A stretch of 64,000 bases of DNA from Candidatus Pacearchaeota archaeon (GTDB lineage Archaea > Nanobdellota > Nanobdellia > Pacearchaeales > GW2011-AR1), in NCBI GenBank assembly GCA_018303755.1, contig JAGVXO010000007.1, positions 295 through 64,294 of the forward strand, written 5' to 3'. Shown piece after piece: positions 10,262 through 57,800 of this stretch; position 1 is the stretch's first letter, and each line of letters begins with the position of its first letter. A model generated the notes under the pieces. It saw only the letters and a program-made list of their open reading frames with translations. It did no database searches and was not told the origin of the DNA. A program made the position numbers and the translations under genes.

Positions 10262-10440
10262 CATTATTTATCAAACTTTGCTTTTTAGGATTACTTTGCT
10301 CGCTCGTTTCACTCGCTCTGCTCGCGATTGTGCTCACATTGTTTAAAACTTTAATTACATTCGTCCAATCGCTCGCCCAACGATTTTGGCTCGCTCCGCT
10401 CACTTATTTATTCTCCTGCAAACCCTTAATCCCTTGGCAC
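10262..10440 (-). repeat. composite intergenic repeat R1 (minus orientation)
   Basis: reverse complement: aagtgagcggagcgagccaaaatcgttgggcgagcgattggacg...gagcacaatcgcgagcagagcgagtgaaacgagcgagc. Confidence 0.65.
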
Positions 10441-10565
10441 ATTGGAATTTATGTATATCACAAAACCCTTTGAGTATACTCCACACTAAAGTGTGGAGTT
10501 TGTGTTTGGGTTTTGGGAGAACCGGGAAAAATCTATACATTTTAACTCCAATCTATGAACAAAGG
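10441..10565 (-). repeat. repeat D (double-hairpin element), copy 3, 5'-truncated
   Basis: reverse complement matches copies 1 and 2 from agattggagttaaaatgtatagatttttcccggttctcccaaaaccc...ctccacactttagtgtggag (perfect 9-bp stem). Confidence 0.75.
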
Positions 10566-10656
10566 TAAAATAAGGAAAAGTTATAGGGTGTTAGAAGAAT
10601 TAAATATCCTTAATCCTTCTAAGAATGTTTAAAAACATCCTTGTCTTTTTGAGGCT

Positions 10657-11856
10657 ATGGTCCAAAGGAAAATTCTGAAAAACGGAATGACTGTGCTTTT
10701 TAAGAAGAAAAGAGGAGGAGTTGTAAGTGTTGCTTTTGCTGTTAGAAACGGCGGAAGAAATGAGGTTGCTAAGGAAAAAGGAATATCTCATTTTATTGAG
10801 CATATGCTTTACAAAGGTACGCCAAAAAGGAACAGCATGCAGATTTCAGCAGAGATTGAGAAAAATGGAGGGGAGCTAAACGGATTTACGAGCGAGAGGA
10901 TGACGGCTTTCTGGTGCAAGATGCCGAGCAGGCATATTAAGGTTGCTCTTGATGTTTTAAGTGATATGGTGAAAAATCCGCTTTTTGATGAAAATGAATT
11001 GAATAAAGAGCGGAAGGTTATTTTTGAAGAAATGAAATTATACCACGATACACCAAGCAGGTATACTGCTGAAAAAATAAAATCTTTGATGTATAGAGGA
11101 GATTTTTCAGTTCCAATCATAGGCACAGAAAGCTCAATGAATTCTATTTCCAGAAAAAAACTTACTGAATTCTTTAAAAAAGTTTATGCCAGCGAGAACA
11201 TGATTCTTTGTGTTGTCGGAGATACAGATTTTAGAAAAGTATGCAGTTTTGCAGAAAATAATTTTATCAAAAAAAGCGGGAAAGTTGCAAAGCCAAAAAT
11301 AATCCTTTCAAATAGTAAACAAATAGAGAGAAGAAATGGAATTGACCAGGCGAATCTTGTTTTTGCCCACCATATTCCTCTTCCAAATAAAAAAGGATAT
11401 TATTCTGCACAGGTATTGAATATGATTATGGCCGGCGGCATGTCTTCAAGGCTTTTTTCAGAAATACGCGAGAAAAGAAATCTTGCATATTCTATAAGAG
11501 GAGAGACAGATTCAGAGGGAGAGTATGCTTATAGTCTTATTGCTGTTGGAACTCCTCCAGAAAATGTTCAAAAAATTGAAAGGCTGATAGTTGAAGAGTT
11601 TAAGAAAGTCTCTGAAAAGCTTTCAGAAAAAGAGCTGTCAGAAGTTAAGGAGCAAATTATCGGGAATTATCTGATTTATCAGGAAGATTCTTTTAATGTT
11701 CTTGCAAATTTGCTTATGGAAGAGATAAAAGGGAATGCGCTTAATGCTGAGAAGTTCATTGACAATATAAAGAAAGTGAAACTAAGTGAAGTTAAAAAAC
11801 TTGCAAAAATTAAAAAATATAGTTTTTTTGCGCTTGTGCCTGATAAGCACAAGTAA
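10657..11856 (+). CDS. M16 (pitrilysin/insulinase) family zinc peptidase
   Basis: inverted zinc motif HFIEH (HxxEH) near the N-terminus; about 400 aa, consistent with two M16 domains. Confidence 0.75.
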   Translation: MVQRKILKNGMTVLFKKKRGGVVSVAFAVRNGGRNEVAKEKGISHFIEHMLYKGTPKRNSMQISAEIEKNGGELNGFTSERMTAFWCKMPSRHIKVALDVLSDMVKNPLFDENELNKERKVIFEEMKLYHDTPSRYTAEKIKSLMYRGDFSVPIIGTESSMNSISRKKLTEFFKKVYASENMILCVVGDTDFRKVCSFAENNFIKKSGKVAKPKIILSNSKQIERRNGIDQANLVFAHHIPLPNKKGYYSAQVLNMIMAGGMSSRLFSEIREKRNLAYSIRGETDSEGEYAYSLIAVGTPPENVQKIERLIVEEFKKVSEKLSEKELSEVKEQIIGNYLIYQEDSFNVLANLLMEEIKGNALNAEKFIDNIKKVKLSEVKKLAKIKKYSFFALVPDKHK

Positions 11857-11914
11857 ATTTGTCCTATTTTTAATGAACCAAAAGGTTTAAACTTGTTCTT
11901 GTATATGTGCTTCT

Positions 11915-12154
11915 ATGGCAATTAAGAATATCTCTATAACTAAAGAGGCATATAGCAGGCCTGCTCGTCTTAAAAAGAACAAGGAACGTTTTTCAGAAAT
12001 TATAGTAAAGATTACCCGAAAAACGAGATTAGAAGATTTTTTTGGAATTTTGTCTAAAGATGCAGGCAGAAAATTAGGAGAGAATATACTTTTTTTAAAA
12101 ACAGAAAGAATAAGAGAATATCAAAAACGACACAAGAAATATAATTCATTTTGA
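11915..12154 (+). CDS. small basic protein, function unknown
   Basis: 79-aa Lys/Arg-rich ORF. Confidence 0.2.
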   Translation: MAIKNISITKEAYSRPARLKKNKERFSEIIVKITRKTRLEDFFGILSKDAGRKLGENILFLKTERIREYQKRHKKYNSF

Positions 12155-12192
12155 GAAAATAAACGGATTAAAAATTGAAGGATATTAAATAT

Positions 12193-15037: not shown

Positions 15038-15084
15038 TTTTTTAAGAAGGGTTATGCCTTTTTATCTTTAACTGCACTTTTTAT

Positions 15085-15350
15085 TTTTTAAACATCCCCA
15101 TAACTTTTCCTTATTTTACATCTTTTCATTAAAGTTTTCTTTTTTATTTAATATCTCATTAAAAATCATAAAGTCTAATGAACAAATGGACGACAGATTT
15201 GCAGAATTAGATAAGTGAGCGGAGCGAACCAAATTAAGGCGAGCCCGAATGGGCGAGCCGATAATTCCATTATTCAAATAAAAAATCACAACCGAAATAT
15301 TTATAACTCCCCCCCTTAAATTGTTAATCTTGCTTTCATAACGATAAAGC
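15085..15350 (+). repeat. composite intergenic repeat R1 (AT block + GCGAGC block + conserved promoter-like leader)
   Basis: near-identical to 29700-29960 and related to 11+ other copies; contains gtgagcggagcgaaccaaattaaggcgagcccgaatgggcgagc. Confidence 0.8.
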
Positions 15351-15385
15351 AGGAATTTTAAAATTGAGTGAAAGGAGGTGATAAA

Positions 15386-16540
15386 ATGAAAAGCAAAGAA
15401 TGGGTTGGAGTGATTGCTGTTGTTGCAGTTGCGTTTGCAATTGCTTGGGTTTCTGCGAATTTAGATGTTTTAACTAATTCAGGAATACTGCAAAGCCCGC
15501 CTTCTGGTAATGATATAAATGTGACTCCGAGAGAGAATCAGACATATTCCTTTATTATGGGGGGAGATAGGTATGATTATAGATTTGGGATGAATAGTGT
15601 TAAGATTCCATATAGTATTGACTTGTCTATTAATGATCCTTTTGCTCAGGAATCCTTTATGAAAAGATTATCTTTTGCAGGGAATGATACTAATAATTTG
15701 AGTTATGCTTATTTTGGATTCCAAAAGATAATAATAAAGGCAAATCTTGTAAAAGTTCATGATACTTGGGCGAAGAAATGGTTTGTTAATTTAACCTTTA
15801 AAGATGCAACAAATGATCCGAATGCACCTTATACGAAAATTGATGGATGTAATCGTATAGATGAAGTAATCATTGATAAAACTCAGGAGCTTACTGATAA
15901 AGGAAGGATTGTTGTGATAGAAGAAATGAGCCCGGTATATTACGGGAATTACTTTATTGCTCCTGGAGATACTAATGGAACTGACGCAGGGATATATAAA
16001 ATAACTACACTTTCAAACTCTTCTACAGAATTCCATTTAGTGCTTACTGATGTGTTTGACACAGCAAATACTTTTGAGGTTACTGACTCTACTGGAGATG
16101 GAATTGCAAGTATCTATATAATGGGAAAACAATATGAGGTTTACTATGCATTTACTTCCTCAACCCTTCCAATTGAAAGGGCTGTTAAATTTGATTTTTC
16201 GCAAACAATAGGACATCAGATTATGGATTTCAGCAAGTGTGCTAATGCACAAGAGAATTATGTTGGTGTTTTGAAAATGTTGAATGAGTGCGATTTAAGA
16301 TTCGTAGACGATTCTTTTTTTAGAAATCAAACGGCTCACATTTCTTGCGATCAAAAATGCCGAGAATCTGGTCAAGTATGTACTGAAGCATATGGTTATC
16401 TATTTAATGGGACAGATGAAGATTCAGAAGATTTTAGAGTAATAACTACTAGGGTTCTTTGTCAGGCACAGGCTTCATCTTCTGATGTTCTGGGTGGGTA
16501 TCCTTTTTTAGAATTAATGTGCAACTGCTGTGGAGATTAA
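15386..16540 (+). CDS. secreted Cys-rich protein (paralog of 30025..30831 at the 5' end)
   Basis: perfect SD AAGGAGGTGA 4 nt upstream of ATG 15386 (track used GTG 15368); signal peptide ...AFAIAWVSA; C-terminal 9-Cys module. Confidence 0.5.
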   Translation: MKSKEWVGVIAVVAVAFAIAWVSANLDVLTNSGILQSPPSGNDINVTPRENQTYSFIMGGDRYDYRFGMNSVKIPYSIDLSINDPFAQESFMKRLSFAGNDTNNLSYAYFGFQKIIIKANLVKVHDTWAKKWFVNLTFKDATNDPNAPYTKIDGCNRIDEVIIDKTQELTDKGRIVVIEEMSPVYYGNYFIAPGDTNGTDAGIYKITTLSNSSTEFHLVLTDVFDTANTFEVTDSTGDGIASIYIMGKQYEVYYAFTSSTLPIERAVKFDFSQTIGHQIMDFSKCANAQENYVGVLKMLNECDLRFVDDSFFRNQTAHISCDQKCRESGQVCTEAYGYLFNGTDEDSEDFRVITTRVLCQAQASSSDVLGGYPFLELMCNCCGD

Positions 16541-16616: not shown

Positions 16617-19600
16617 TTATATTAATTTTTTTTGTATTTCTTCTTCATCTTTTTTATTTTCGTCTGCGCTTTTTCCTTCACTTTCTATTTCTTCATCCTG
16701 CGCTTTTGCATTAAATGTTCCGTCCTGCATTTCCTGTTTTATTGAGCTTATGGCGTTGTGCATTCTTTTTTCCTTGTGATAAGCGGCCCAGTAATATGCT
16801 TCGTCTCTTGTGTCTTTTGTTATAAGCATTATCAACTCTCCTGGCATTAATCTTGCTGTTCTTCCTGCTCTCTGAATTTTTCTTATTGCGCTTGGAACTG
16901 GCTCGTAAAAAATAACTGTATCAACTTCAGGTATATCAAGCCCCTCTTCTCCTATCTGGGTGCTGACTAAGACATTGAATTTTCCGTCGGAAAAGTCAGA
17001 GATTATTTCTCTTTGCTCTTTTTGGCTTAGTCCTGTATCTCCTTTTTTTGCCTGCCCTACAAAAACTTTTGCACTTGCATTTTCAATCGAATTAATTTCC
17101 TTGCATATTTTTGTCACGCTGTCACGATACTGCGAAAAAACAATTATTTTCGGGTTTTTGATTGAGCTTATTTTTGATTCTATAATTGCTTTTAGCTGAA
17201 GAAGTTTCGGATGCTCTAAATTTTCATTTATCATCTGCTTTATTTTTTCATATGCAATTGTAAAATCAGGATTGCTGACAAGCTTTTTTACAGCTCTGCT
17301 TTTATTCTGCCTTGCCTGTTCATTCAGAGATTCAATATAATTATTTAATCCATAAAGTGTTTGGGTTTCAAGAAGTTCAATTGCATGTCCGATTTTTATT
17401 GCCTGTGCGCATAATGACGCTCCATAGAACAAATTAAAATTTTTACTTCCTCTTGAAATCATAGCCATTATTCTTTTCTGGCAGTCTAACAAAGCGATTT
17501 TGTTTGCGGGCCCATTAAGGATATTTTTTTCTTTAAGCGAATTTATGTTTTTATCATAAATGTTTTTCAAATGAACTTTAATTTCTTTGAATTTTTGCGG
17601 AAATTCCACTTTTATTGTGTTTATGTCAAGTTCCTGCAAATATTCTTTCAAGTCTTCGCTTTCTCGTGTTCTTATTTCAACTTCTTCAATATTCAGATTT
17701 TCACAAATGAGTTTTATTGACTTTTTGTCTGCGCCAGGCGAGGCAGTAAGTCCCAAAATCCTCGCATTTTTCGCCTGCTCGATATACTTTTTCGCAACAT
17801 AAGTGTAGCTGTAATTTTTCACGCATTTATGCGCTTCGTCTTCTATAAGCAGAGAAACTCCTTCTAAATCATATAGTTTTTTCTTTAAATCATTGGCAAT
17901 GCAATTATGGTTTACTAAATAATTTGCTATAAAATTATGGTGTTTATCAACGCTTAAATCATACACTTCTCTTTTTTCTCGACACCCTCTTTTTTCTTTA
18001 ATCTTCACCCACCTTATTGGAAGGTTGAGAAGTTCTTTCAATTTATTGGCACTTTCTCCCTCTAAACAAGAGGATAGCTTTTTTAAATTATCCAAGGACA
18101 GGCAACTAAATTTATAATATTCTGCTTTGCTCATATTAGACTTATGAATTTTTTTCATTAATTCTGGAATAGGCAGTATTTCTTTTGAGCGTGTTTCTGG
18201 TCTTTTTGTATTGTTTAAGGTTTCTATTAGTTTTTTACATTTTTCTTTGTTTGGAGAGGACTCAAGAAATTTTTTTAAATTCAGCCTTCCTGTGAATTTG
18301 AATGTAAAAATTTCAGATTCTTTTAAATGTCTTCCATTTATCGTTCCATGAGATTTTGTTTTTTCAATATTGCCAAGAATGCCTATTCTTAAAAATAGCC
18401 ACTTTAGTCCCTGCACAAATTTTTCGCTTACACTGGATATTGATACTCCGTATTTTGATGCATGGCCATCTGTGTCAAATATTCCTTTGATAAATCCATT
18501 TATAGAATCTTTATCTGCGAAAAATAAAAATTTTGGAATTTCAATTCTTCTTGCTTTTTTTCCTTTTGGGATTCCAAGATGCGAGAAGAAATGTGCGAGA
18601 GCAGAGTTATAAGCAATAAGCCCTTTAGTTTTATCTTTCTTCATTTCAATTCCAAAAACTTCTTTAACTGCCTCTTTAAATTCTTGAGAGATTGATTCTC
18701 TTTCTAATTCTGAGAGGACCACTTCAGACCCATGACCTATCCTATCTCCAATATGTCCATCACCAAACATCGCACCTAAGATATATGCTAATTTATTGTC
18801 TAACTTTTTAGGGAGCTTTATTGGAGAACTTTTTCCGCAGCTATCTGTAAGTGTCAATAAGCTATAATCAAAATCTATTTTTTTTGATAGTTCTAGGAAA
18901 AGTTTTATGGGCATGAAGTTATAAAAATATCTTGAATAAGGCGAGGTTTTAATTTTCTTCTCTTTTAACTTCTTTATTAAGTCTTTTGTAAGAGCAGTAT
19001 CTGCTATTTTTAAACATTCACTCGAAGAGAGGAGATTTAAAATGTCGAGATTTTTTTCTTCTATATCTATCTTCTTTGAAGATGCAATGTAATCTCCTTT
19101 ATTTAGGCTTGACGCTTCCTTCCAAATTAATTCTCCACATGGGCTTATTGTTAAAAGAGGGTGGTCTTTTGTACACAAGAGGGTATTTCCTATTTCGGTT
19201 TTTATATTAATTACTTCTTCGGTTGTCCTTTTCCATGCTTTTGTTGCCTTTAAGAAATCAATTTTTTGCCCATTGTAACCCAGAATTTTTTCATTTATCT
19301 CAGCGACTTCTATTTTTCCATTTAGATAGTTCTTTTCTTCGAAATTAAATTGTTTGAAGAAATCTGAAATTTTTATCGGACCTTCTCCAGTGAATATTAA
19401 TGTTCCGCCATCAATGCACTGCGGAGTTGAAAATATAATGTCTGTTCTCTGCCATATTTTTTTTCTTTTTTCTGCATCAACTTTTCCTGTAAAAAGCTCC
19501 ATTTGAGCAAACAGCTCTGGAAGATATTTTTTAAAATAAGCAATATGCTGTTCTGCGAGCGGGCGTGTTGGAGCAAGAAAAAGAATTTTCTCCTCTGGAA

Positions 19601-19760
19601 ATTTCTGCATCCTATGTATTGTGAGAAGCAATGCAACAAGAGTTTTTCCTATGCCTGTAGGCAGGACTACTAAACAGTTTTTTTCTTTGCATTTTTCAAA
19701 TATCTTTTTTTGATATTCTCTTGGATTTATATCTTTTAAAAATTTCTCTTCTGGCATCAT
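16617..19760 (-). CDS. Hef/RIG-I-like SF2 helicase (nuclease-less) containing one LAGLIDADG intein
   Basis: motifs PTGIGKT, FSTPQ, (intein), EDEAHK, LTASPG, QRAGRTAR; extein about 540 aa plus intein about 505 aa. Confidence 0.8.
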   Translation of the reverse strand: MMPEEKFLKDINPREYQKKIFEKCKEKNCLVVLPTGIGKTLVALLLTIHRMQKFPEEKILFLAPTRPLAEQHIAYFKKYLPELFAQMELFTGKVDAEKRKKIWQRTDIIFSTPQCIDGGTLIFTGEGPIKISDFFKQFNFEEKNYLNGKIEVAEINEKILGYNGQKIDFLKATKAWKRTTEEVINIKTEIGNTLLCTKDHPLLTISPCGELIWKEASSLNKGDYIASSKKIDIEEKNLDILNLLSSSECLKIADTALTKDLIKKLKEKKIKTSPYSRYFYNFMPIKLFLELSKKIDFDYSLLTLTDSCGKSSPIKLPKKLDNKLAYILGAMFGDGHIGDRIGHGSEVVLSELERESISQEFKEAVKEVFGIEMKKDKTKGLIAYNSALAHFFSHLGIPKGKKARRIEIPKFLFFADKDSINGFIKGIFDTDGHASKYGVSISSVSEKFVQGLKWLFLRIGILGNIEKTKSHGTINGRHLKESEIFTFKFTGRLNLKKFLESSPNKEKCKKLIETLNNTKRPETRSKEILPIPELMKKIHKSNMSKAEYYKFSCLSLDNLKKLSSCLEGESANKLKELLNLPIRWVKIKEKRGCREKREVYDLSVDKHHNFIANYLVNHNCIANDLKKKLYDLEGVSLLIEDEAHKCVKNYSYTYVAKKYIEQAKNARILGLTASPGADKKSIKLICENLNIEEVEIRTRESEDLKEYLQELDINTIKVEFPQKFKEIKVHLKNIYDKNINSLKEKNILNGPANKIALLDCQKRIMAMISRGSKNFNLFYGASLCAQAIKIGHAIELLETQTLYGLNNYIESLNEQARQNKSRAVKKLVSNPDFTIAYEKIKQMINENLEHPKLLQLKAIIESKISSIKNPKIIVFSQYRDSVTKICKEINSIENASAKVFVGQAKKGDTGLSQKEQREIISDFSDGKFNVLVSTQIGEEGLDIPEVDTVIFYEPVPSAIRKIQRAGRTARLMPGELIMLITKDTRDEAYYWAAYHKEKRMHNAISSIKQEMQDGTFNAKAQDEEIESEGKSADENKKDEEEIQKKLI
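17904..19418 (-). other. intein in helicase (between FSTPQ and CIANDL)
   Basis: starts with Cys (CIDGGTL), ends HN followed by +1 Cys; internal LAGLIDADG blocks (LAYILGAMFGDGH, DKDSINGFIKGIFDTDGH). Confidence 0.75.
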
Positions 19761-21409: not shown

Positions 21410-21534
21410 TCTTCTTTTGCGATCATCCAATAATCTTGCCTTATTTTAAGTTTGTTCATGGGCGTTTTTTATTTTTAATATAAATGAATCTTATTCAAAT
21501 TTATAAAAGAAATAGATTGCCTTTGTATGAATGT

Positions 21535-21725
21535 ATGGCGGATTAGCAGATTTGAAGAAAAATAAATATGAGTGAGCAGAGCGAACCAAATTAAGGCGAG
21601 CCCGAATGGGCGAGCATATTACTTATTTTGCTAACACCCTCCATACTTTTTTCCACATTTTACCTCTTTTCATTAAATTTTTTTTATTTAATATTTCATT
21701 AAAAATATAACTTCTAATAAACAAG
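21535..21725 (+). repeat. composite intergenic repeat R1
   Basis: gagtgagcagagcgaaccaaattaaggcgagcccgaatgggcgagc followed by tattttgctaacaccc...ttttcattaaa...ttatttaatat block. Confidence 0.75.
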
Positions 21726-21809
21726 TGGATTAAGAATTTAAGAAATGCCTTTTAAATACCTTTTAGAAAGGTATTTAAATAATGCTGGTTTTTTATTGGG
21801 GTTATTAAA

Positions 21810-25649: not shown

Positions 25650-25790
25650 AATTTGTTTGCACGTGCAGATAAATTGAGCGTTTTAAGGGATGTTTTGCTC
25701 GCTTCGCTCGCCTTTTTATTTTTCAAATTTGTTAATCTATTGATACATTGGTTTTCAGGAATTTAATTTGTATTAATAATAAAATAATAA
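25650..25790 (-). repeat. composite intergenic repeat R1 (minus orientation)
   Basis: reverse complement contains aaaaccaatgtatcaa...ggcgagcgaagcgagcaaaacatccc. Confidence 0.6.
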
Positions 25791-25796
25791 ATTTTT

Positions 25797-25925
25797 AATA
25801 CTCGTGAAAAATCTCCAATCTTTAGATTGGAGTTAAAGTGTATAGATTTTTCCCGGTTCTCCCAAAACCCAAACACAAACTTCACACTTTAGTGTAGAGT
25901 ATCCTCAAATGGTTTTGTGATTAAA
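25797..25925 (+). repeat. repeat D (125-bp double-hairpin element), copy 1
   Basis: about 95% identical to 45017-45140; hairpins ctccaatctttagattggag and cttcacactttagtgtagag. Confidence 0.8.
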
Positions 25926-26023
25926 CAGATATTAAATAAGAGAAAGTTATTAGATGTTAGAGAATAAGCTACTTTAATCATATTTAGCATCACAGAAAAC
26001 TATTTTAATCGTCTTTTGGTTTT

Positions 26024-28285
26024 ATGGTTATGTTATTTAAAAAAGGGGCTGTGCTTTATTCATATGAAGTTCAGAGAGAGTCAGGAGAGAATGTTATTTA
26101 TGTAAACTATCTTGGAGCGCCTGATATTCCAAGCATCGCAAAATCTCCTGAAGTTATGACAAGAGCAATTGATTTATTTATTGAATCTCCTAATGCTTCG
26201 AGATTAGTATTAGTCCAGCAGAGAAATTACAGCTATAATTCAGAGCAGGTTGAAATGCTTGTTGAAATTGCACAATTATATACTTTTCTTTTAAAGCAGG
26301 AAAGAGTGCTTTCTCCAGAAATGTTGTCAAGTAATCCAAGGGAGTTATCATCAAGATATGCTTTTATGAATTATTTTATGACTATTTTAAGACAGAACCC
26401 ATTTTTAGCATACAGAAAGATTAAAAATGCCTTAATTGAAGAAAAATCAAAGAGTGGGCACGATATTCTTTACATTGGGCTTCTTGAAAAAATTGTTTCA
26501 TTACTCTTAAAAACAAAACTTATTTTAAAAATAGAAAAATATGCAGAGGATTATGCTTTTGAAAGCAGGGAAATATACGAAAAACTTTTTTCTCCAAATA
26601 TAATCCCTAATTATGCTTTTGCAAGGCTTGCTTCTGAGCTTCCGGAAAATGCGAAAATAATATCGCAATATGCTATTGGAAGTGGAGATGATAAAAGCAC
26701 AGTAACTATCTTAAAAAAAGAAAATGAATTAAAATATATTTATCATTTAATGCCTCCTGAATATTTTCTTAATGAGGATTTTCAGATGCTTCTTAATCTT
26801 GCGAGAAATGTTCTTATAGAGCACCAGCCAAAGGCAGAAGAGTTTACAGATACTGAAAGAACAAGGCAGGTTTTTTTTAATGTTGCGCGCGATTTATTGA
26901 GGGAGCTTGCAGAAGAAAAACATATAACTTTTTCTTATGAAGAGCTTGGCAAACTCGCGATGATTCTTGTAAGACATACAATTGGCTTTGGCTTGTTAGA
27001 GGTTCTTTTGCAGGACAGTAATTTGCAGGATATTGTTCTTAATGCTCCGATAAGCATGAATACAATTTTTGTAAGGCATGGAAAATATGATGAGTGTTCT
27101 ACGAATATTATTCTTAGCCAGGAAGATGGAGAATCGTGGGCCGCGAAATTCAGAATGATTTCAGGAAGGCCGCTTGATGAGGCAAATCCTGTTCTCGATA
27201 CTGATTTATTGATTGAAGGCGCGAGAGCAAGAGTTTCAATTGTGCAGAGGCCTTTATCTCCTCACGGACTTGCATATGCTGTAAGAAGACACAGAGATTA
27301 TCCTTGGACACTTCCTTTGTTTATTGAAAATAAAATGCTTAATCCATTTACTGCTGGATTATTAAGTTTTCTTATTGATGGGAGCAGGACACTTCTTGTG
27401 GCAGGAACAAGAAGCTCTGGAAAAACTTCGCTTCTTGGAGCTTTAATGCTTGAAATAAAACCAAAATATAGAATTATCCTTATAGAAGATACTCTTGAAA
27501 TTCCTGCAGATTATTTGAGAAAAATGGGTTATGATATTTTAAGTATGAAGGTGCGTTCTTCGCTGACTGAAACAAGCAACGAAGTTACAGCAGAAGAGGG
27601 AATAAGAACAAGTTTGAGATTAGGAGACAGCTCTTTAATTGTCGGCGAGATAAGAAGCAATGAAGCAAAAGCATTATATGAGGCAATGAGAGTAGGAGCA
27701 CTTGCAAATGTTGTTGCAGGAACGGTTCATGGAAACTCTCCTTATGGTGTTTTTGACAGAATTGTAAATGATTTGCAAGTTCCGATTACAAGTTTTAAAG
27801 CAACTGATTTAGTTCTTGTTGCAAATCCTGTTAAAAGTCCTGATGGATTACATTCTGCGAGGAGAGTTGTTCAATTAACAGAGGTAAGAAAGCACTGGAC
27901 AAAAGATCCTCTTGAAGAAAAAGGATTTGTTGATTTGGTTAATTATAATGTTGAGAAAGATGAATTAGAGCCGAGTGATGAATTGATTAACGGGAATTCT
28001 GAAGTTATAAAAGCAATTGCTTCAGGAGTTAAGGGATGGGCAGGAAACTGGGATGCTGTTTATGATAATATTATTTTAAGAGGGATGGTTAAACAGGAGC
28101 AGGTTGAATTAGCACATAGGTTGAACAGGCCAGAACTACTTGAGGCAAATTTTTCCCTTCTTGCAAATACTTTATTTCATAACATTTCTGAAGAAGTTAC
28201 AAAAGAGTTAGGATTTCCTGATTCCAAGATTGTTTTTCCTAAATGGAAAAAGGACGTTGAGAAACTTGCGCAGGATTTTTCTTAA
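26024..28285 (+). CDS. type IV pilus/archaellum-type secretion ATPase (GspE/FlaI/PilB family)
   Basis: Walker A VAGTRSSGKTS, Walker B IILIEDTLEI, downstream Asp/His boxes; large N-terminal domain. Confidence 0.75.
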   Translation: MVMLFKKGAVLYSYEVQRESGENVIYVNYLGAPDIPSIAKSPEVMTRAIDLFIESPNASRLVLVQQRNYSYNSEQVEMLVEIAQLYTFLLKQERVLSPEMLSSNPRELSSRYAFMNYFMTILRQNPFLAYRKIKNALIEEKSKSGHDILYIGLLEKIVSLLLKTKLILKIEKYAEDYAFESREIYEKLFSPNIIPNYAFARLASELPENAKIISQYAIGSGDDKSTVTILKKENELKYIYHLMPPEYFLNEDFQMLLNLARNVLIEHQPKAEEFTDTERTRQVFFNVARDLLRELAEEKHITFSYEELGKLAMILVRHTIGFGLLEVLLQDSNLQDIVLNAPISMNTIFVRHGKYDECSTNIILSQEDGESWAAKFRMISGRPLDEANPVLDTDLLIEGARARVSIVQRPLSPHGLAYAVRRHRDYPWTLPLFIENKMLNPFTAGLLSFLIDGSRTLLVAGTRSSGKTSLLGALMLEIKPKYRIILIEDTLEIPADYLRKMGYDILSMKVRSSLTETSNEVTAEEGIRTSLRLGDSSLIVGEIRSNEAKALYEAMRVGALANVVAGTVHGNSPYGVFDRIVNDLQVPITSFKATDLVLVANPVKSPDGLHSARRVVQLTEVRKHWTKDPLEEKGFVDLVNYNVEKDELEPSDELINGNSEVIKAIASGVKGWAGNWDAVYDNIILRGMVKQEQVELAHRLNRPELLEANFSLLANTLFHNISEEVTKELGFPDSKIVFPKWKKDVEKLAQDFS

Positions 28286-28292
28286 ATCTTAT

Positions 28293-28470
28293 TTTTAAAC
28301 ATCCCATAATTTTGCCTTATTTTTACATCTTTTCATTGAAGTCTTCTTTTTTATTTAATATCCCATTAAAAATCATAAAGTCTAATGAACAAATAGACGA
28401 CAGATTTGCAGAATAAAACAAGCGCGAAGCGCACTAATGTCGTTATTAATGTGAGCGAGCGAAAGATTTA
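28293..28470 (+). repeat. composite intergenic repeat R1
   Basis: aaacatcccataattttgccttatttttacatcttttcat...gacagatttgcagaataaaacaagcgcgaagcgcac...gtgagcgagcgaaag. Confidence 0.75.
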
Positions 28471-28489
28471 AATATCCATATACTTCTAT

Positions 28490-29095
28490 ATGATAAGGTG
28501 TATAAATATGTATGAAAATAAATATAAAAATGAGCCTCTTACGAGATTAGAAGATTTAGATATTCTTTTAAATCTTTTGGCAGATTTAAATGAGCCGTTG
28601 GAATTGTTTGCAATAGGAGGAACTGCAATGGTTTTAAAAAGAATTAAAGAATCTACAAAGGATATAGATTTTTTGACTGCTGAAAAATATGAGAAAATTA
28701 AAAAGCTATTTACTTTAGCAGGTTTAAAAGAAGAAAGTTCTAATAAACTTTGTAACATTTGGAAATTAGGCAATATTCGGATAGATATTTTTTATGATGG
28801 TTTTATTATGGGCATAAGATTTCCTGATGATTGGAGAAAGTTATCTGAAAAAGTAAAAGAAATTGGAAAAATTAAGCTATATATTCTTAATTGGTATGAT
28901 TTGATTATCACGAAAATTTCAAGGGCTGAGAAAAGAGATATTGAAGATATAATTGCAATAATAAAAAGCCAAAAGTTAGATTTTGGTTTTTTGAAAAAGA
29001 GATATTATTCTTTTGCCGAAACTGCACTTATTTCAGATTTTGATTATAAATTTAAACATTTGGAAAGGGAATATGCCAAGCGCAAAATTGATTAA
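28490..29095 (+). CDS. nucleotidyltransferase, paralog N2
   Basis: LFAIGGTAMVLK...DIDFLT NTase motif; same architecture as 23625 and 43554. Confidence 0.5.
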   Translation: MIRCINMYENKYKNEPLTRLEDLDILLNLLADLNEPLELFAIGGTAMVLKRIKESTKDIDFLTAEKYEKIKKLFTLAGLKEESSNKLCNIWKLGNIRIDIFYDGFIMGIRFPDDWRKLSEKVKEIGKIKLYILNWYDLIITKISRAEKRDIEDIIAIIKSQKLDFGFLKKRYYSFAETALISDFDYKFKHLEREYAKRKID

Positions 29096-29693: not shown

Positions 29694-29699
29694 GCGAGC

Positions 29700-29960: not shown

Positions 29961-30024
29961 TTTTTAACACGAAAAAGAAAGATTGAACTAAAATAAAAAA
30001 TAGTGATTGAAAGGAGGTGATAAA

Positions 30025-30831: not shown

Positions 30832-30913
30832 GCAATTTATTTTTTATTTTCTTTTTATTTTCTTTTTTCAATACCTTTATTAATTCTTTTTTTCTTATTT
30901 CTATAAGGAATAA

Positions 30914-33545: not shown

Positions 33546-33605
33546 TCAGAAAGCCGTAGTTTAATTCAGAGATACATTTATTAATTATTCTTTGTTAATT
33601 GAATT

Positions 33606-41763: not shown

Positions 41764-41799
41764 ATGCCCGCTCTGCTCATTCATCATTATTATTTCTTA

Positions 41800-41960
41800 A
41801 ATTTTACTCCATGAGAACATTGGGTATTCATATATTTTAATTCATATTAAAAATAAAGAGGATATAAAAGATAAACACCAATGAACAAACTTAAAATTAG
41901 GGAAAAGAATGGAGTGATAGCAAAATGTTGTTCATTTGCCTATGGCAGAAAGCAATAAGT
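41800..41960 (-). repeat. composite intergenic repeat R1 (minus orientation, partial)
   Basis: reverse complement: attttgctatcactccattcttttccctaattttaagtttgttcattggtgtttatcttt. Confidence 0.55.
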
Positions 41961-43552: not shown

Positions 43553-43553
43553 T

Positions 43554-44179: not shown

Positions 44180-44350
44180 GACTGATATCAGTTTTCTTCT
44201 TTAAACACTCGTAACTTTCTCACATTCATTATCTTTTCAAGGGTTTTCTTTTTTGATTGAATTTGTTTAATGTTAAATTAAAACATATAAAACCAATCTG
44301 CCCACAACGCCAGATTTCAAAAATAATAAAACAGGTACGAAGCGCACAAA
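44180..44350 (+). repeat. composite intergenic repeat R1
   Basis: tttaaacactcgtaactttctcacattcattatcttttcaa...aaccaatctgcccacaacgccagatttcaaaaataataaaacaggtacgaagcgcac. Confidence 0.6.
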
Positions 44351-44382
44351 AGTATTAAATACTCCAAAAACGGGAAATATCA

Positions 44383-45015
44383 ATGAGCAGTTTAAGAAAA
44401 GAACAGCTGAAACAGGCAAGAGAAGCGCTTTTAAAGCAGATTGAAAGCTGGAAAGGAGATCAGGAAGGCGCAAGAGAGCAGATTAATTCTTTATCAGATG
44501 AAGAGCTTGAAAGCTTTTTGATTAAAAATAAGATTATAAAACTGCCTTATGGCGAATCTGAAAATTCTGCAGAATCAAAAAGTCCGTTCAGAATGATTGT
44601 AGAAGGAAAAATTAAGAGTTATAAAATTTCAGAAAATGACAGTGCACTTGCAGTTCTTGAAATAAATCCTGTTTCAAAAGGGCACACAATTATAATTCAA
44701 AAATCGCCGTCTGAAGAAATCTTAGAGGGAACAGAAACTCTTGTAAAAGAAACTGCAGACAAATTAAAATACACGCTAAACTGCAGAAGAGTTGATGTTG
44801 CAGTTCAGGATGTTCTGGGAGAAAGAATAATTAATTTAATTCCAGTTCATAATGAAGAAAATATAAACTCAGAAAGAAAAAAAGCAAGTGATAACGAACT
44901 TAAAGACGTGCAAAAACAAATTCTGGAGAAAAAAGCTGAGGAAAAAACAGAGAAAAAATCTGAAAAAGAAATTCCAATAGAAAAGCTTCCAAAAGCGCCG
45001 AGGAGGATTCCTTAA
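44383..45015 (+). CDS. HIT-like protein (degenerate histidine triad) with Lys/Glu-rich tail
   Basis: SALAVLEINPVSKGHTIIIQK resembles the HIT N-terminal block; the canonical HxHxHxx triad is not intact (NLIPVHNEE). Confidence 0.35.
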   Translation: MSSLRKEQLKQAREALLKQIESWKGDQEGAREQINSLSDEELESFLIKNKIIKLPYGESENSAESKSPFRMIVEGKIKSYKISENDSALAVLEINPVSKGHTIIIQKSPSEEILEGTETLVKETADKLKYTLNCRRVDVAVQDVLGERIINLIPVHNEENINSERKKASDNELKDVQKQILEKKAEEKTEKKSEKEIPIEKLPKAPRRIP

Positions 45016-45016
45016 T

Positions 45017-45140
45017 ACTCGTGAAAAATCTCCAATCTTTAGATTGGAGTTAAAATGTATAGATTTTTCCCGGTTATCCCAAAACCCAAGCACAAACCCC
45101 ACACTTTAGTGTGGAGTATACTCAAAGGGTTTTGTGATTT
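45017..45140 (+). repeat. repeat D (double-hairpin element), copy 2
   Basis: perfect 9-bp stem ctccaatct-tt-agattggag (45030-45049) and ccccacact-tt-agtgtggag (45097-45116). Confidence 0.8.
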
Positions 45141-45443: not shown

Positions 45444-46437
45444 ATGAACAATAAACAAATAGAATTTCTTAAGAAAGCTTATAAAAAAGAAAGAGATGCA
45501 AAAATAATAAAGAGAATTCTTATGATAATTTACACACTTCAAAAAGAAACTTTAAGAGAGATAGGTGAAAGACTTCATTGTGACCATAAACTTGTACTTT
45601 ATTGGAAAAGGAGATATGAAAAAGAAGGCTTAGAAGGTCTTAAAACAAGACCCAAAAGTGGAAAGCCGAGAAAGATTTCACGACGACAAGAAGCAAATTT
45701 AAAAAGAATCTTTTCTAAAGAAAATCCAGATAAACCTTGGACAACAAAAAGAGCTTTAGTATTAATTGCAGAAAAAACAGGTGTAGATTATTCACAACGT
45801 CAGACAACGAGAATTTTAAATCGCTGGAATTTTGGTCTCTCTACGGGTAGACCAATTTATTGGCATAAAGCTTCAGAGGAAGAAATAGCAAAATTCGGAA
45901 AAAAAAATTTGGTATTACAAAGATAAATATCCAAATCATCCATTATTTTGTGAAGATGAATCAACATTCCTTTATGATTCAATTTCCAGGAAAGTTTGGG
46001 TAGTAAAAGGCAGAGAATATAGACGATTAGTGACAGGTTCTCATAAGAAAGTACATGCATATGGCTTTCTTTCTGAAAATGGTAAAAAGATGTTTACATT
46101 AAGAAAAAACATGAATGCTGAAGAATTTGTTAAAGTTTTATCTAAATTCTTACACAAATTCAAAAGAGCAATACTAATTTTGGATAAGGCTCCTTGGCAT
46201 AAAAAGTCAAAGAAAGTTCAAAAATATTTGAAGGAACATCGACGAGAATTAAAGATAATTTGGTTTCCATCCGGATGCCCTGAAATGAATCCTGTTGAAG
46301 AATGTTGGAGACAAGCCAAAGGAGAAGTTAATGGTGGTAGAATTCATGAAAGTTTTGAAAGGATGGTGAAAGAACTAAGATATTTTATGAAATATACTGA
46401 ATTCAGGCAGAATATGGGGAAATACTTACGTCCTTAG
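45444..46437 (+). mobile_element. IS630/Tc1-mariner family transposase, split into two frames at an A9 tract
   Basis: ORF1 (HTH/CENP-B-like, ends 45926) and +1-frame ORF2 (reading back to 45898: KIWYYKDKYPNHPLFCEDESTF...; DDE with ...WFPSGCPEMNPVEECW) joined at ggAAAAAAAAAttt (45899-45907). Confidence 0.7.
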
Positions 46438-50399: not shown

Positions 50400-50439
50400 G
50401 TTAATTCTATATCTTTATGCTTTATAAAGTTTTCTTTGT

Positions 50440-50940
50440 TTTTGGGCGTTTTTGGTTTTATCAATCAAAGATTTTCAAATGAATCAATGTACTTGCAAGT
50501 AGAGCGCAATATTTATTTTGCTAACATACCATAACTTTCCATTATTTTAAGTTTGTTCATTGGTGCTTTTTTTAATATCTCTCAGTTAAATCTCAGAAGA
50601 ACAAATGAATCAATTGGCGTAAGATTTGAGAAATAGATAAGTGAGTGAAGCGAACCAAAATAAAGCGAGCCCGAAGGGCGAGCGATTGCACGAGCTAAAA
50701 AAAGTTGATACAATGAGTGCAATCGTGAGCAGAGCACAATATTTATTTTATTAACATCCCATTCTTTTTACTTATTTTAAGTTTGTTCATGGGTGTTTTT
50801 TATTTAAGGCATGTAAATTTCAATCTGCTCATGGAAAAGGATTAGCAGAATAAAATAAGCGCGAAGCGCGAACCATTAATTGCACTTATGGCGAGCCCGC
50901 AGGCGAGCGAGTTTGCTTTTATTAGAAAAGTGCGAAATGT
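50440..50940 (+). repeat. composite intergenic repeat R1, about 2 tandem units between divergent genes
   Basis: two A/C blocks (ttattttaagtttgttcat at about 50545 and 50778) and GC blocks (50640-50700; 50855-50920). Confidence 0.75.
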
Positions 50941-51784: not shown

Positions 51785-52170
51785 TGAATTCTTTTTTTTA
51801 ACAACCCTTAAACTCCTCCCTTATTAATCCAATTTTCGGCGTTTGGAAATCTAAACTCCACTCGTTCCTTTTTGTTCTCATCTTGTTTTTTGTTTTATTT
51901 TTGAAAGCCATGCTCCTATGCCTCGTGTCTCGTGCTGAGGCGCTTGCGCTTCGCTTAAAGGAACATTTATAACCATGTGTTAATATAATTTAACAGATGT
52001 TAAAAGAAATTAACAGGCTTGCTGTGTTTTTTGGGAATTGTTCTTTTTAATGGATGTATTGGCTTTGTCTAAAAGATTATATTCAGGATGTTTAATAGTT
52101 TATATTACCAATATACAATAGTTTATATTGAGAATAGAAAGCTTTAAAAATATGTGCTCTTATAATAATT

Positions 52171-55254: not shown

Positions 55255-55289
55255 AGAATAAACAGCTTTTTTTTGTTTATATTTCTTTC

Positions 55290-55560
55290 TCTGCCTTGAT
55301 TTATATTGGCTCTGCTCGCGATTGCACTAATTGTATATTCTTCTTTGGCTTGTGTAATTGCTCGCCTGCTACTCGCGATTGCACTCATTATATCTCCTTC
55401 ATTAGCTCGTGCAATCGCTCGCCCTTCGGGCTCGCTATAAATGTACTTAATGGCTCGGCTTCGCCTCGCTTATTTTATTTTGCAAATCCCACTTCATGAG
55501 CACATTGATTATTGGGTGCTTTTAATTGATAATGTAAAAAAGAAAAGATAAATGAAAAGA
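55290..55560 (-). repeat. composite intergenic repeat R1 (minus orientation)
   Basis: reverse complement contains gagcgagcccgaagggcgagcgattgcacgagc and A-block aaacatgccattcctttcctgcattttacctcttttcat. Confidence 0.7.
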
Positions 55561-55599
55561 GGTAAAATGCAGGAAAGGAATGGCATGTTTAAAAAATAA

Positions 55600-55872
55600 C
55601 TAAAAGCTAATTCTTCTGAAGTCAATTATTTCTGTTGAGCTTACATTTTCTATTGCCCTTAGCGCCTCTTCCAAAGGATCCTGATCTGAATTTTCGTCCC
55701 AGGCAAATGTGATTATAATGGAATTAAGCCCAAATGCAATCGGCTCTTTTTCTGTTTTTGCCACCTTGCCGTGATATTCCATTATTATTTTTACTGCAGA
55801 ACTCTCTATGGCTTCCAGGTCTGCGTCTGGAGAAGTGGGCATTATCCTTATTTTTACTGCTGCGTCTCCCAT
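55600..55872 (-). CDS. translation elongation factor 1-beta (aEF-1beta)
   Basis: 89 aa; AVKIRIMPTSPDADLEAIE...EPIAFGL matches the archaeal EF-1beta signature. Confidence 0.7.
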   Translation of the reverse strand: MGDAAVKIRIMPTSPDADLEAIESSAVKIIMEYHGKVAKTEKEPIAFGLNSIIITFAWDENSDQDPLEEALRAIENVSSTEIIDFRRISF

Positions 55873-56165
55873 AGCTATTTGAGTTAAATTTGCTTTTTAA
55901 GGATTTTGGTTTAAACCGGCAACTTATCTTCTTGCAGAGTATCCTTAGTCAGTGCTTTTCTTTAGACTTCTTACACCTTTCTAATATTTTGGGTTTAATT
56001 GAAGTTTATCTAACTATCTATAATTGTATAAGTAAAAATAAATTCTAGATTTTTAAGTTTTTAATAAAACTCAGCTATCACAATACTTAAAAATGGCCGA
56101 TGTTTTTTTAAGGAGTTCTCTAAAAGAGCACGTTAAAAAAAGATTAAAATAAGGGGTAAAATAAA

Positions 56166-57101
56166 ATGCTTCAAAATTATCAGCAAATTGCGGAAAAGAT
56201 TTCAAGAGCATCAGGTTTATCTATAGATGAGATAGACAGGAGAGTTGAGGCAAAGTGCGCGAAACTTTCTGGATTGATTTCAAAAGAGGGAAGTGCGCAG
56301 ATTGTTGCATCTGAACTTGGAATTTCATTTGAAAAAGAAAAAATGAAGGTATCTGAGCTTGCAGCAGGAATGAAAAGAGTTAATATTTTGGGCAAAATAA
56401 TTACAGAGCCAATGATAAGGAGTTATTCTAAAAATGGGCGAGAGGGCAAGGTTGCATCTTTGACTGTTGCAGATGAGACAGGGAATATAAGGGTTGTTTT
56501 GTGGGATACAAATCACATAGGGCTGTTTGAATCAGGAAAAATAAAACAGGGCAATACTGTTGAAATATCAAATGCTGCGGTCAGAAATGATGAGCTGCAT
56601 TTATCCGGTTTTTCTTATATCAAGCCGAGCACAGAAAATATTGAAAATGTGAATACAGAAATAAGTGTGCATGAGAAAAAGATATCAGAACTTGCTTCTG
56701 GGCAGAATGCTGTTGTTCGGGCTTTTCTTGTCCAGATTTTTGAGCCGAGGTTTTTTGATGTCTGCCCAGAATGTGGAAAAAAAGCTGCGAATAATTTATG
56801 CGCTGTTCATGGGAATGTTATTTCAAGAAAAAGGGCGCTTGTGGGAGTTGTGCTTGATGACGGATATGAAAACATGAGGGGAGTGATGTTTAATGAGCAG
56901 ATAGAAAATTTAGGAATAACAAATGAAGAACTTGAAAATCCTGAGTTATTTTTCAAGAAAAGAGAGGCGCTTATTGGAGAAGAGGCGTTTTTTACAGTTA
57001 ATGTAAGAAATAACAACCTTTTTAATACAACAGAGCTTATTGTGAATAATATAGAGAGAATTGACATTGATAGATTGATTAACTCTCTGCAGACGAAGTA
57101 A
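56166..57101 (+). CDS. replication protein A-like ssDNA-binding protein (OB folds + zinc ribbon)
   Basis: OB-fold block VASLTVADETGNIRVVLWD and CPECGKK...C..H zinc ribbon. Confidence 0.5.
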   Translation: MLQNYQQIAEKISRASGLSIDEIDRRVEAKCAKLSGLISKEGSAQIVASELGISFEKEKMKVSELAAGMKRVNILGKIITEPMIRSYSKNGREGKVASLTVADETGNIRVVLWDTNHIGLFESGKIKQGNTVEISNAAVRNDELHLSGFSYIKPSTENIENVNTEISVHEKKISELASGQNAVVRAFLVQIFEPRFFDVCPECGKKAANNLCAVHGNVISRKRALVGVVLDDGYENMRGVMFNEQIENLGITNEELENPELFFKKREALIGEEAFFTVNVRNNNLFNTTELIVNNIERIDIDRLINSLQTK

Positions 57102-57116
57102 AGAGGTTGAAAGAAA

Positions 57117-57569
57117 ATGATGTTTAAAACTCATTTGGCAATTGGAATTTTTGCAATTATTTTGTTTTTACCAATCGTCAGCGATGTTTTTATTTTTGTG
57201 CCCATTGCCCTTGCAGCTTCTGTTCTTCCTGACATTGACACGAATTTTTCAAAAGTCGGGAAATCAAAGCCTGCCAAAGTTGTTCAGGTTTTTACAGAAC
57301 ACAGAGGTTTTTTACATAGCTTAACTATTTGCATTTTAATTTCTTTACTTCTTGCTGTCTTCCTCCCTGTTGCTGCTTTTGGTTTTTTTCTCGGATATTC
57401 GCTTCATTTAATATCAGACAGCTTTACTAAAATGGGCATAACTCCATTTTGGCCTTATTCAAAAAAAGCGCAGGGATTTATCAGCACAGGTGGAGTAACT
57501 GAAAAAACAATTTTTGTTATATTTGTGTTTATAGATATTATTGCTTTTGCAGTTTTGATGCTGAAGTAA
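57117..57569 (+). CDS. membrane-bound metal-dependent hydrolase (DUF457/YdjM-like)
   Basis: 4 TM with conserved D/H residues (DIDTNF, HRGFLHS, HLISD). Confidence 0.4.
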   Translation: MMFKTHLAIGIFAIILFLPIVSDVFIFVPIALAASVLPDIDTNFSKVGKSKPAKVVQVFTEHRGFLHSLTICILISLLLAVFLPVAAFGFFLGYSLHLISDSFTKMGITPFWPYSKKAQGFISTGGVTEKTIFVIFVFIDIIAFAVLMLK

Positions 57570-57800
57570 GTTATTTTGTAATGGTGCGCTTCGCGCACTT
57601 ATCAAATATTCTGCAAATCTGCTAATCCGCGGATACATTGATTCTTTATATTTTTAAAAGGATATTTAATTAAAATATGGGATAATTAAAATTAAAATAA
57701 TAAAACTTCAATAAAAAGATGTTAAATAAGGGAAAAGAATGGGATGTTAGAGACATTTAAGTTTATCTTGCTATTTTTAACACTATCCTGCGACTGAAAT
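57570..57800 (-). repeat. composite intergenic repeat R1 (minus orientation)
   Basis: reverse complement: ctaacatcccattcttttcccttatttaacatcttttt...aatcaatgtatccgcggattagcagatttgcagaatatttgataagtgcgcgaagcgcac. Confidence 0.7.

Follow-up and report, generated by a model that had tools for sequence, protein, structure and literature searches.

The window described here, the whole stretch of 64,000 nucleotides that was analyzed, is archaeal DNA with a G+C content of about 32% and belongs to Candidatus Pacearchaeota archaeon (contig JAGVXO010000007.1, positions 295 to 64,294 of the forward strand). Among its genes are those for TyrRS, a GTPase, an M16 peptidase, ERCC4, a helicase, an ATPase of the type IV pilus/archaellum type (the pilus ATPase), a prepilin peptidase, a HIT-like protein, EF-1beta and RadA, and spacers between the genes carry copies of a repeat family, here designated R1. 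The same locus is carried by contig Ga0208375_1000360 from a groundwater metagenome, and more than 20 other assemblies of it are at least 99.6% identical to the window. The closest relatives of its TyrRS and ATPase share 73-80% identity and are labelled Candidatus Pacearchaeota or Nanoarchaeota. Here we present a description of the R1 family, its modules, distribution and position relative to genes, together with the explanations that may account for it.

Detection and copy number

A repeat search of the window returned families whose repeats measure 60-131 nt and number up to 11. An nhmmer profile was seeded with four copies of R1 and then iterated, and box A, box B and boxes C-D were also searched with separate models. 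The iterated profile detects 17 copies with E-values from 7e-8 to 1e-46, plus one weak match (Table 1). R1 amounts to 2.8 kb or 4.4% of the window, about one copy per 3.5 kb. All copies are confined to spacers outside called genes, with the sole exception of an E/junction-like remnant at 29674-29700, which supplies the last codons at the 3' end of the open reading frame (ORF) 29073-29693. The models for box A, box B and boxes C-D found 17, 16 and 8-9 sites, respectively; order and orientation of the modules are constant at every site, and neither B nor C-D was ever found alone. Of the 30 GCGAGC hexamers in the window, 24 fall within R1. The hairpin strand is the (+) strand in 13 of 18 copies, and the GC skew of the window is uniformly positive. 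Elsewhere in the population the density is comparable, with three copies in 9.3 kb of locus L126 and two in the 7.3 kb of locus L161 (Ga0103680_10004884, 1-11217) that lie outside the window sequence. Were this density to hold over about 1 Mb, some 250-300 copies would be expected. A scan of public metagenomes for R1 delivered two loci, L125 and L126.

The R1 family is real and absent from every library searched. With Rfam 15 no match at the gathering threshold was obtained over the whole window, the best hits on regions of R1 and of a second repeat, R2, having E-values of 1.9-8 and 14-18 bits, far short of that threshold; a tRNA search of the window found none, and phage and plasmid collections contain no DNA similar to R1. 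A collection scan with GCGAACCAA-N4-10-GCGAGCCCG gave 118 chance loci from GC-rich bacteria (median GC 65%) and no R1, while viral scans with GCGAGSCGAAGSCGAGC (uninformative, at chance level) and with the box A pattern (10 chance matches) yielded no R1 either.

The original prediction, made from the letters of the window, had listed 12 sites of a recurring composite intergenic repeat not assignable to a known class. All 12 were recovered with the iterated profile, and the class assignment stands as it was given. Its coordinates were mostly right, but those at 10262-10440 and 25650-25790 omit the box A beyond a nested R2 of 99-128 nt, 21535-21725 straddles two tandem units, and the copies at 4834 and 63922 were overlooked. 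A degenerate copy suspected at 51840-51970 is not supported.

Module anatomy and hairpins

The unit of R1 consists, in fixed order, of a T-tract-rich box A, an AT spacer, box B and zero to four G-rich hairpin modules (C, D, E). Box A measures about 50 nt, contains several T-tracts and conforms to the consensus TTATTTTKCTAACATCCCATAAYTTTKCCTTATTTTA(CATCTTTTCAT or AGTTTGTTCAT); on its 3' side come an oligo-T run and then the AT spacer, which carries indels. Box B reads CCAATG..TGGA...GATTTGCAGAATAAAATAAG, box C reads GTGAGC[GAA]GCGAAC with variants, and box D reads GGCGAGCCC[GAA, GCA or GAAT]GGGCGAGCC. Module E is composed of GCGAGCGATTGCAC, a loop of about 24 nt and GTGCAATCGYGAGC, and occurs once at 50680-50735, once near 10300-10360 and as a tandem pair at 55290-55420. 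The left end at box A is fixed and the right end is variable, lying after B, C, D or E. Units are 120-315 nt long, of which a large part is non-palindromic. At tandem junctions, (A/G)CAATAT or ATATTAC precedes TTATTTTG; the original prediction had described this junction correctly, as it had the motifs of the GCGAGC type and the GCCC-N3-4-GGGC hairpins.

GCGAGC recurs because two arms of this type pair with each other, in the order G-C, C-G, G·A, A·G, G-C and C-G, round a C-GNA-G triloop. Box C occurs with 13 distinct stems in 18 copies (14 from the window and four from L126 and L161), such as GTGAGC/GCGAAC, GCGAGC/GCGAGC, GCGAGGC/GCCGAGC, GTGCGC/GCGCAC and GTGCGCC/GGCGCGC. The helix is kept through changes of T-A to C-G, with T·G intermediates present, through replacement of tandem G·A by G-C/C-G (GTGCGC/GCGCAC) and through one-base insertions mirrored on both arms (GCGAGGC/GCCGAGC, GTGCGCC/GGCGCGC). 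Stem scores are 4 or higher in 83% of copies versus 18% of shuffles and 5 or higher in 67% versus 4.5%; in a pair count, standard pairs fill 78% of the cells versus 10-50% when the partner columns are slid. The hairpins of R1 are real structures kept through compensatory changes.

As G·A and G·T turn into C·T and A·C on the complementary strand, the G-rich strand should fold better; it folds equal to or better than the C-rich strand in five of six blocks, with modest differences in predicted energy, and the fold z-scores of the GC blocks range from -0.7 to -2.9. No stacked covarying pairs were detected in box A, the spacer or box B. A CATTGG/CCAATG pairing able to close the AT spacer is present in most copies with one covarying pair; being short and AT-rich, it is only suggestive and unproven. 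RNAalifold on eight copies returned no consensus hairpins because of indels and the penalty on G·A pairs.

GCGNAGC and CCGAAGG are reported to be exceptionally stable as DNA mini-hairpins and less stable as RNA, and such mini-hairpins occur at single-strand initiation sites (PMC13037366). The loop and closing-pair types of R1, GCGAAGC, GCGGAGC, CCGAAGG and C-GCA-G, match those described there: the core of box C is GCGAAGC, GCGGAGC or GCGCAGC-like, and that of box D is CCCGAAGGG. This is a likeness to a structural motif rather than to an element family.

Two other readings of the modules were rejected. GUGAGC...GCGAAC is not a C/D box or K-turn, as it has neither a 3-nt bulge nor a D box. A micro-ORF on the reverse strand of box A (M-N/K-K/R-L/C-K-I-R...) is without start, or has early stops or frame shifts, in about seven of 18 copies, and is also contradicted by non-synonymous differences between two box A subfamilies (by reading).

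Table 1. Copies of R1, module F and R2 at the locus (window coordinates unless a locus is named).
Feature	Position	Strand	Evidence and remarks
R1: box A, spacer, box B; no GC block	4834-4986	+	Divergent spacer; nhmmer E 4.4e-18
Doubtful partial R1, box-A-like only	8165-8227	+	nhmmer E 0.019; box A model alone E 0.67
R1: A, B, C, D-like hairpin, E, further GAGCGA hairpin arms	10290-10602	-	nhmmer E 6.8e-35 (profile span 10358-10602); between GTPase and M16 peptidase genes; truncated R2 nested
R1: A, B, C, D	15081-15262	+	nhmmer E 1e-46; separates, with gene 15386-16540, ERCC4 from helicase
Optional module F: end of hairpin D, promoter CCGAAATATTTATAAC, poly-C run	15251-15315	+	100% identity over 65 nt to 29870-29934 (repeat search)
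R1: A, B, C, D; tandem unit 1	21412-21619	+	nhmmer E 8.8e-35; begins 2 nt past the upstream stop codon
R1: A, B; tandem unit 2	21623-21745	+	nhmmer E 7e-14
R1: A, B, C, with nested R2	25693-25961	-	nhmmer halves E 9.7e-13 and 4.6e-4
R1: A, B, C and GTGAGCGAGCG	28292-28475	+	nhmmer E 2e-35 (profile end 28467); end overlaps BRE of NTase gene promoter (site 13.9 bits)
R1: A, B, C, D	29705-29881	+	nhmmer E 1.4e-38; family of the repeat search
R1: A, B, C; tandem unit 1	33145-33285	+	nhmmer E 5.6e-27
R1: A, B, 10-bp hairpin AACGCGCGCC[CGCA]GGCGCGCGTT, three more tandem-GA hairpins	33292-33550	+	nhmmer E 2.9e-29; folding
R1: A, B, degenerate C	41765-41926	-	nhmmer E 2.5e-24; GC end abuts 3' end of prepilin peptidase gene
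R1: A, B, degenerate C	44194-44351	+	Divergent spacer; nhmmer E 1.2e-18
R1: degenerate partial unit	50434-50492		Precedes copy 50513-50742
R1: A, B, C, D, E; first full tandem unit	50513-50742	+	nhmmer E 1.1e-40; fold z-score -2.8 on G-rich strand
R1: A, B, C, D; tandem unit 2	50743-50916	+	nhmmer E 1.8e-35
R1: A, B, C, D, two E	55285-55599	-	nhmmer E 1.1e-37; both E modules recovered by the repeat search; starts directly past EF-1beta stop codon
R1: A, B, C with perfect stem GTGCGC[GAA]GCGCAC	57580-57751	-	nhmmer E 1.2e-28; GC end abuts a gene 3' end, box A faces RadA promoter
R1: box A and start of spacer	63922-63995	+	nhmmer E 7e-8
R2, truncated	10457-10555	-	Nested in R1
R2	25797-25921	+	Nested in R1
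R2	45014-45138	+	Overlaps stop codon of HIT-like gene
R2	L001, ~9740-9865		Same family

BRE, transcription factor B recognition element; NTase, nucleotidyltransferase.

Distribution in relatives

Relatives were tested for R1 with the profile, with a broadened, unfiltered box A profile and by motif counts. No R1 was found in 17-35 kb each of five organisms (L127/L159, L129, L131, L157 and L160), and GCGAGC occurs 0-4 times per relative locus versus 30 times in the window. L127/L159 and L157 keep TyrRS, GTPase, peptidase, arginase, LigT, ERCC4 and helicase in the same order, without R1. The spacer between the GTPase and peptidase genes measures 412 nt in the window and 479 nt in public contigs versus 52 nt in L127, and ERCC4 and helicase, adjacent in L127 and L157, are parted in the window by R1 and gene 15386-16540.

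L158, whose TyrRS is 78% identical, has a diverged full homologue of R1 at 4205-4455(-), consisting of box A, GATTTGCAAAAT, AATAAATAAG and the hairpin GCGAGCGAGCC[CAAA]GGTGAGCGAGC, and besides this four copies of box A only, three of them in tandem. To judge from these sequences, the R1 family predates this population; among relatives its occurrence is patchy, and here it has expanded greatly.

The window and the compared loci have several further features. L158 carries a diversity-generating retroelement (460-543, 964-1047 and 1078-2115), in which a template repeat stands before the reverse transcriptase gene and shares 90% identity with a variable repeat in the 3' end of the upstream gene. 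The helicase of the window (16617-19760, DEAD/Helicase_C) carries one intein with a LAGLIDADG endonuclease and RadA (57834-61832) carries two inteins; helicases in five relatives have 514-524 amino acids and no intein. The window differs from six of six public assemblies by 66 nt missing at 10555 (part of R2 and of the R1 spacer), by the absence of 59 nt at 14073, and with them the start of a 124-amino-acid gene, and by one G-to-T at 7338; it may represent a strain variant, or an assembly or editing difference.

Recombination and nested repeats

Copies of R1 are mosaics. The identities of the individual modules are uncorrelated over pairs of copies (Spearman -0.08, -0.07 and -0.27): copies 15081 and 28292 share 94, 95 and 92% in A, spacer and B and 51% in C-D, whereas copies 15081 and 21412 share 67 and 62% in A and B and 94% in C-D. 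L161 is identical to window positions 25819-29763 and then, right after box A of copy 29705, continues with another R1 body and another locus, with genes for a 163-amino-acid protein, SRP54, PAP2, FtsY and GINS, another R1 copy and tRNA-Thr. Either the DNA has rearranged at R1 or a chimeric contig was assembled through it. The region 29894-30000, adjacent to R1 and module F (an optional 3' module described below), is where several public contigs begin.

The original prediction had further claimed that copies bracket accessory cassettes, among them the NTase pair between the pilus ATPase and platform genes, and the slot after the pilus ATPase proved to be variable in relatives too. Between the pilus ATPase gene and a gene of about 733 amino acids (28286-30900) the window has a DUF6036 NTase pair and a 268-amino-acid gene; the same slot contains an NTP_transf_2 pair in L159 (12257-13400) and a GH10 gene with small genes in L160 (12245-15150). 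From this comparison the slot looks like a conserved hot spot for cassettes.

The second repeat family, R2, has a length of about 124 nt, with 94-97% identity between copies. Two of its copies are nested in R1, in opposite orientations. R2 has two related perfect 8-bp hairpins, CTCCAATC[TTTA]GATTGGAG and CTCCACAC[TTTA]GTGTGGAG; no Rfam or viral match and no clear terminal repeats or target duplication were found for it. One copy lies 300 nt upstream of a split IS630/Tc1-type transposase gene, with a helix-turn-helix part at 45444-45926 and a DDE_3 part at 46030-46437, about 100 nt apart, which is either degenerate or in need of a frameshift. R2 was rejected as a MITE (miniature inverted-repeat transposable element) derived from the ends of the IS630-like gene, as a search for matching ends gave none. 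At the IS630-type gene (45444-46437) the R1 profile is without a match, its ends not having been systematically compared with R1.

Position relative to genes

R1 occupies seven divergent and seven co-directional spacers of the window and none of its about nine convergent spacers, and many of the spacers with a copy are stretched to 200-570 nt. The copies at 41800-41960 and 57570-57800 were originally placed at gene 3' ends, where they indeed lie, as do a copy between the 3' ends of GINS and tRNA-Thr on a contig of the same population and the L158 homologue, which sits in a convergent spacer; these last two positions indicate that a neighboring gene start is not required. Of 12 sites where the 3' end of a gene borders R1, box A is the part next to it at 10 (by reading), and its T-tracts lie 0-17 nt from the upstream stop codon at six of seven measured sites. 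Judged from position, R1 probably acts as a boundary between transcription units.

Comparison with known element classes

Streptococcus pneumoniae has BOX elements, which are composed of boxA, repeated boxB and boxC and number roughly a hundred or more in a small genome. They are intergenic and non-coding, have stable predicted hairpins and truncated forms, and can affect the expression of neighboring genes. BOX is not known to encode a transposase or to contain a series of tandem-GA/GNA-loop hairpins or a T-tract block, and no mode of movement is known for it. R1 resembles BOX in being intergenic and non-coding, in fixed module order with a variable number of internal modules, in predicted hairpins, in truncated forms and in encoding no transposase; it differs in having no sequence similarity to BOX and in its archaeal rather than bacterial host.

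With repetitive extragenic palindromes (REP), bacterial interspersed mosaic elements (BIME) and REPINs, which have been connected with termination and with effects at the 3' ends of mRNAs and for which single-strand DNA recognition is proposed, R1 shares GC-rich spacer palindromes, mosaic clusters and hairpins kept by compensatory change. REP sequences are 20-40 nt long with a GTAG/CGTC head and usually stand in inverted pairs, whereas R1 measures 120-315 nt, including a long AT-rich part that is conserved; its hairpins all point the same way, and their arms start with GTGAGC, GCGAGC or GGCGAGC rather than GTAG or CGTC. Correia elements of Neisseria are abundant intergenic repeats beside genes that can supply promoters, terminators and RNA processing sites, and they have terminal inverted repeats and a TA duplication; R1 is like them in abundance and location, but neither terminal inverted repeats nor a consistent target duplication were seen in it. 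It is like MITEs, including those of archaea and the IS200/IS605-derived palindrome-associated transposable elements (PATEs), in being non-autonomous, intergenic, high-copy and patchy, with nested insertions, but unlike them in that no terminal inverted repeats or target duplications were found. R1 does not match CRISPR arrays or leaders either, in which direct repeats of 24-48 nt alternate at regular intervals with unique spacers: its copies are dispersed 1.4-17 kb apart without unique spacers, and no tandem array exceeds two or three units, each about 150-230 nt long.

By behavior the closest analogues appear to be the pneumococcal BOX and the enterobacterial BIME/REP mosaics, an analogy that implies no membership. 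R1 is best read as a new BOX/BIME-like mosaic repeat that spreads and recombines. We hold it slightly more probable than not that R1 is a high-copy, non-coding, modular intergenic repeat which has proliferated in one groundwater Pacearchaeota lineage, continues to recombine between copies and took on a boundary role. Its spread would be that of a non-autonomous element or would proceed through recombination and gene conversion; hairpins on one strand would fit a route through single-stranded DNA. Once settled, a copy would serve as boundary between transcription units, its hairpins followed by T-runs halting transcription that arrives from the opposite side. The description as mobile, MITE-like or recombinogenic in the original prediction holds for the proliferating and recombinogenic part, given the patchy occurrence in relatives between otherwise adjacent conserved genes, the mosaic modules and the tandem arrays, but not for the MITE-like part.

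Several observations weigh against this explanation. No R1 indel and no polymorphism of filled and empty sites occur among the more than 20 population assemblies, so that the comparison of strains suggested with the original prediction returned nothing. There are no terminal inverted repeats in five copies with their flanks, only internal AT-rich pairs, and no complement of the left end TTATTTTGCTAACATCC at any right end of R1; the flanks that were read have no consistent target duplication, and the right boundary is variable. The window has no candidate mobilizing enzyme, the split IS630-type gene being its sole transposase, and we infer the movement of R1, its agent and the action of its hairpins as DNA or RNA rather than having seen them. 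A selected function could also account for the conserved primary sequence of boxes A and B and for the homologues that a second species carries. A terminator is not required between divergent genes, and seven copies lie there. In the pair count the shuffle control is not significant for standard pairs, because changes from G·A to G-C go uncounted there. Finally, the first R1 profile missed the L158 homologue, which indicates limited sensitivity, so that absence from the other relatives also rests on the motif counts and the second model.

Alternative explanations

For the evaluation of promoters a weight matrix was derived from the upstream regions of 34 window genes. It contains a sharp motif, AAAGnTTTATAAAnAn, whose commonest start lies 34 nt ahead of the ATG, suggestive of leaderless mRNAs; the promoters of the window genes have a median of about 10.5 bits.

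It is unlikely that R1 copies are genes or 5' leader modules of small structured RNAs formed by hairpins C to E, in which case transcription would begin near GATTTGCAG, driven by a weak promoter within the AT spacer. About half of the copies carry a TATA-like AAAnnTTTATAAA 4-8 nt before CCAATG (9.0 bits in copy 33292), for which the 21-22 nt rule of window genes would set the start near the conserved GATTTGCAGAAT; compensatory changes, G·T (G·U) wobbles on the G-rich strand and the slightly better folding of this strand also agree with an RNA. The TATA-like stretch before box B scores 1-9 bits and mostly below 6, however, short of the median of real promoters, and single copies have no conserved T-tract terminator after the hairpins. 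Copies 4834, 21623 and 63922 are devoid of any hairpin, the fold z-scores are modest, helix covariation is confined to the GC block, Rfam gave no match, and GNA triloops belong to DNA mini-hairpins, whereas RNA typically has GNRA or UNCG loops.

Somewhat less likely still is a further proposal, in which the hairpin block would be a strand-specific signal in single-stranded DNA, with stacked GCGNAGC-type mini-hairpins and tandem G·A stems, read by an enzyme. If this were true, R1 would be the first of a new archaeal class of modular elements, mobilized as single strands and free of terminal inverted repeats, which was co-opted as standard transcription boundary in a streamlined DPANN genome.

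Less probable again is that R1 is the non-autonomous partner of a system of single-strand DNA transposition, as with IS200/IS605 and PATEs, REP and the REP-associated tyrosine transposases (RAYT), or rolling-circle elements. This would be a specific version of the favored explanation, with the hairpins as recognition or termination signals. It would suit hairpins with DNA mini-hairpin loops that should form well on one strand only, the lack of terminal inverted repeats, a fixed end at box A with the other end after B, C, D or E, and the preference of hairpins for the G-rich (+) strand in a window of positive GC skew throughout. That orientation bias equals the bias of gene strands, however, and neither a Y1/HUH transposase nor a RAYT is present among the called, Pfam-annotated window genes (about 80 kb of the genome were seen). 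PATEs are expected to have subterminal hairpins at both ends and a TnpA, neither of which was seen for R1: its hairpins stand at the GC end only, box A shows no helix, and no conserved flanking tetranucleotide was identified.

The least probable of the explanations considered is that R1 is a portable promoter or upstream regulatory module which supplies BRE/TATA or transcription factor sites to the gene at its GC end, as the original prediction had suggested. In its favor, the GC end lies 0-63 nt upstream of the BRE/TATA of the gene at eight of eight scored sites, a weak promoter-like site of 6-9 bits recurs on the reverse strand of box A as the best recurrent matrix site in R1, and the module F described below truly is a common promoter and leader before three different genes. 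Against it, the core unit of R1 is not a portable promoter. Only two matrix sites of at least 9 bits occur within 18 R1 copies, and the promoters near R1 lie outside the conserved unit and differ from site to site. Genes 15386 and 30025 have their BRE/TATA about 30 nt past the GC end (by eye), and the two genes facing box A (41990 and RadA) have promoter sites of their own too. The BRE+TATA-like gcgaaagATTTAAATAtcc formerly assigned to the unit is the own promoter of the NTase gene adjoining one R1 copy and no part of the conserved unit. The GC block was said to lie 20-90 bp before a start codon, which is true for most sites but not for 15386 and 30025, with gaps of 124 and 144 nt. Furthermore, two copies in the window and two outside it are directed at gene 3' ends, the downstream genes have no function in common, and R1 is absent upstream of the orthologous genes in relatives.

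Promoter and leader are combined only in the optional 3' module F, seen at 15251-15315, at 29870-29934 and once in L161. It contains the promoter CCGAAATATTTATAAC, the poly-C run, TTGTTAATCTT, a leader with GGAGGTGAT and a hydrophobic N-terminus. The region of module F, including 15360-15409 and 29999-30048 and L161 4110-4240, shows 78-100% identity between three genes with otherwise unrelated products, and the length of the poly-C run at 29936 varies among assemblies. The three genes may be pilin-like paralogues, with 5' ends homogenized by gene conversion.

Significance of the R1 family

DPANN genomes are small and dense, with spacers of a few tens of bases, so that a repeat load of about 4% is unexpected; R1 shows that selfish or co-opted repeats can expand in streamlined, episymbiont-type genomes. 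It also explains assembly breaks: the starts of several public contigs fall within or beside R1 or module F, and one contig passes to another locus within a copy. Even if R1 were only junk, it would still be a useful marker of strains and lineages. Its GNA triloops and one-strand stems with tandem G·A pairs offer a testable handle on hairpins of single-stranded DNA or RNA as boundary or mobility signals in archaea.

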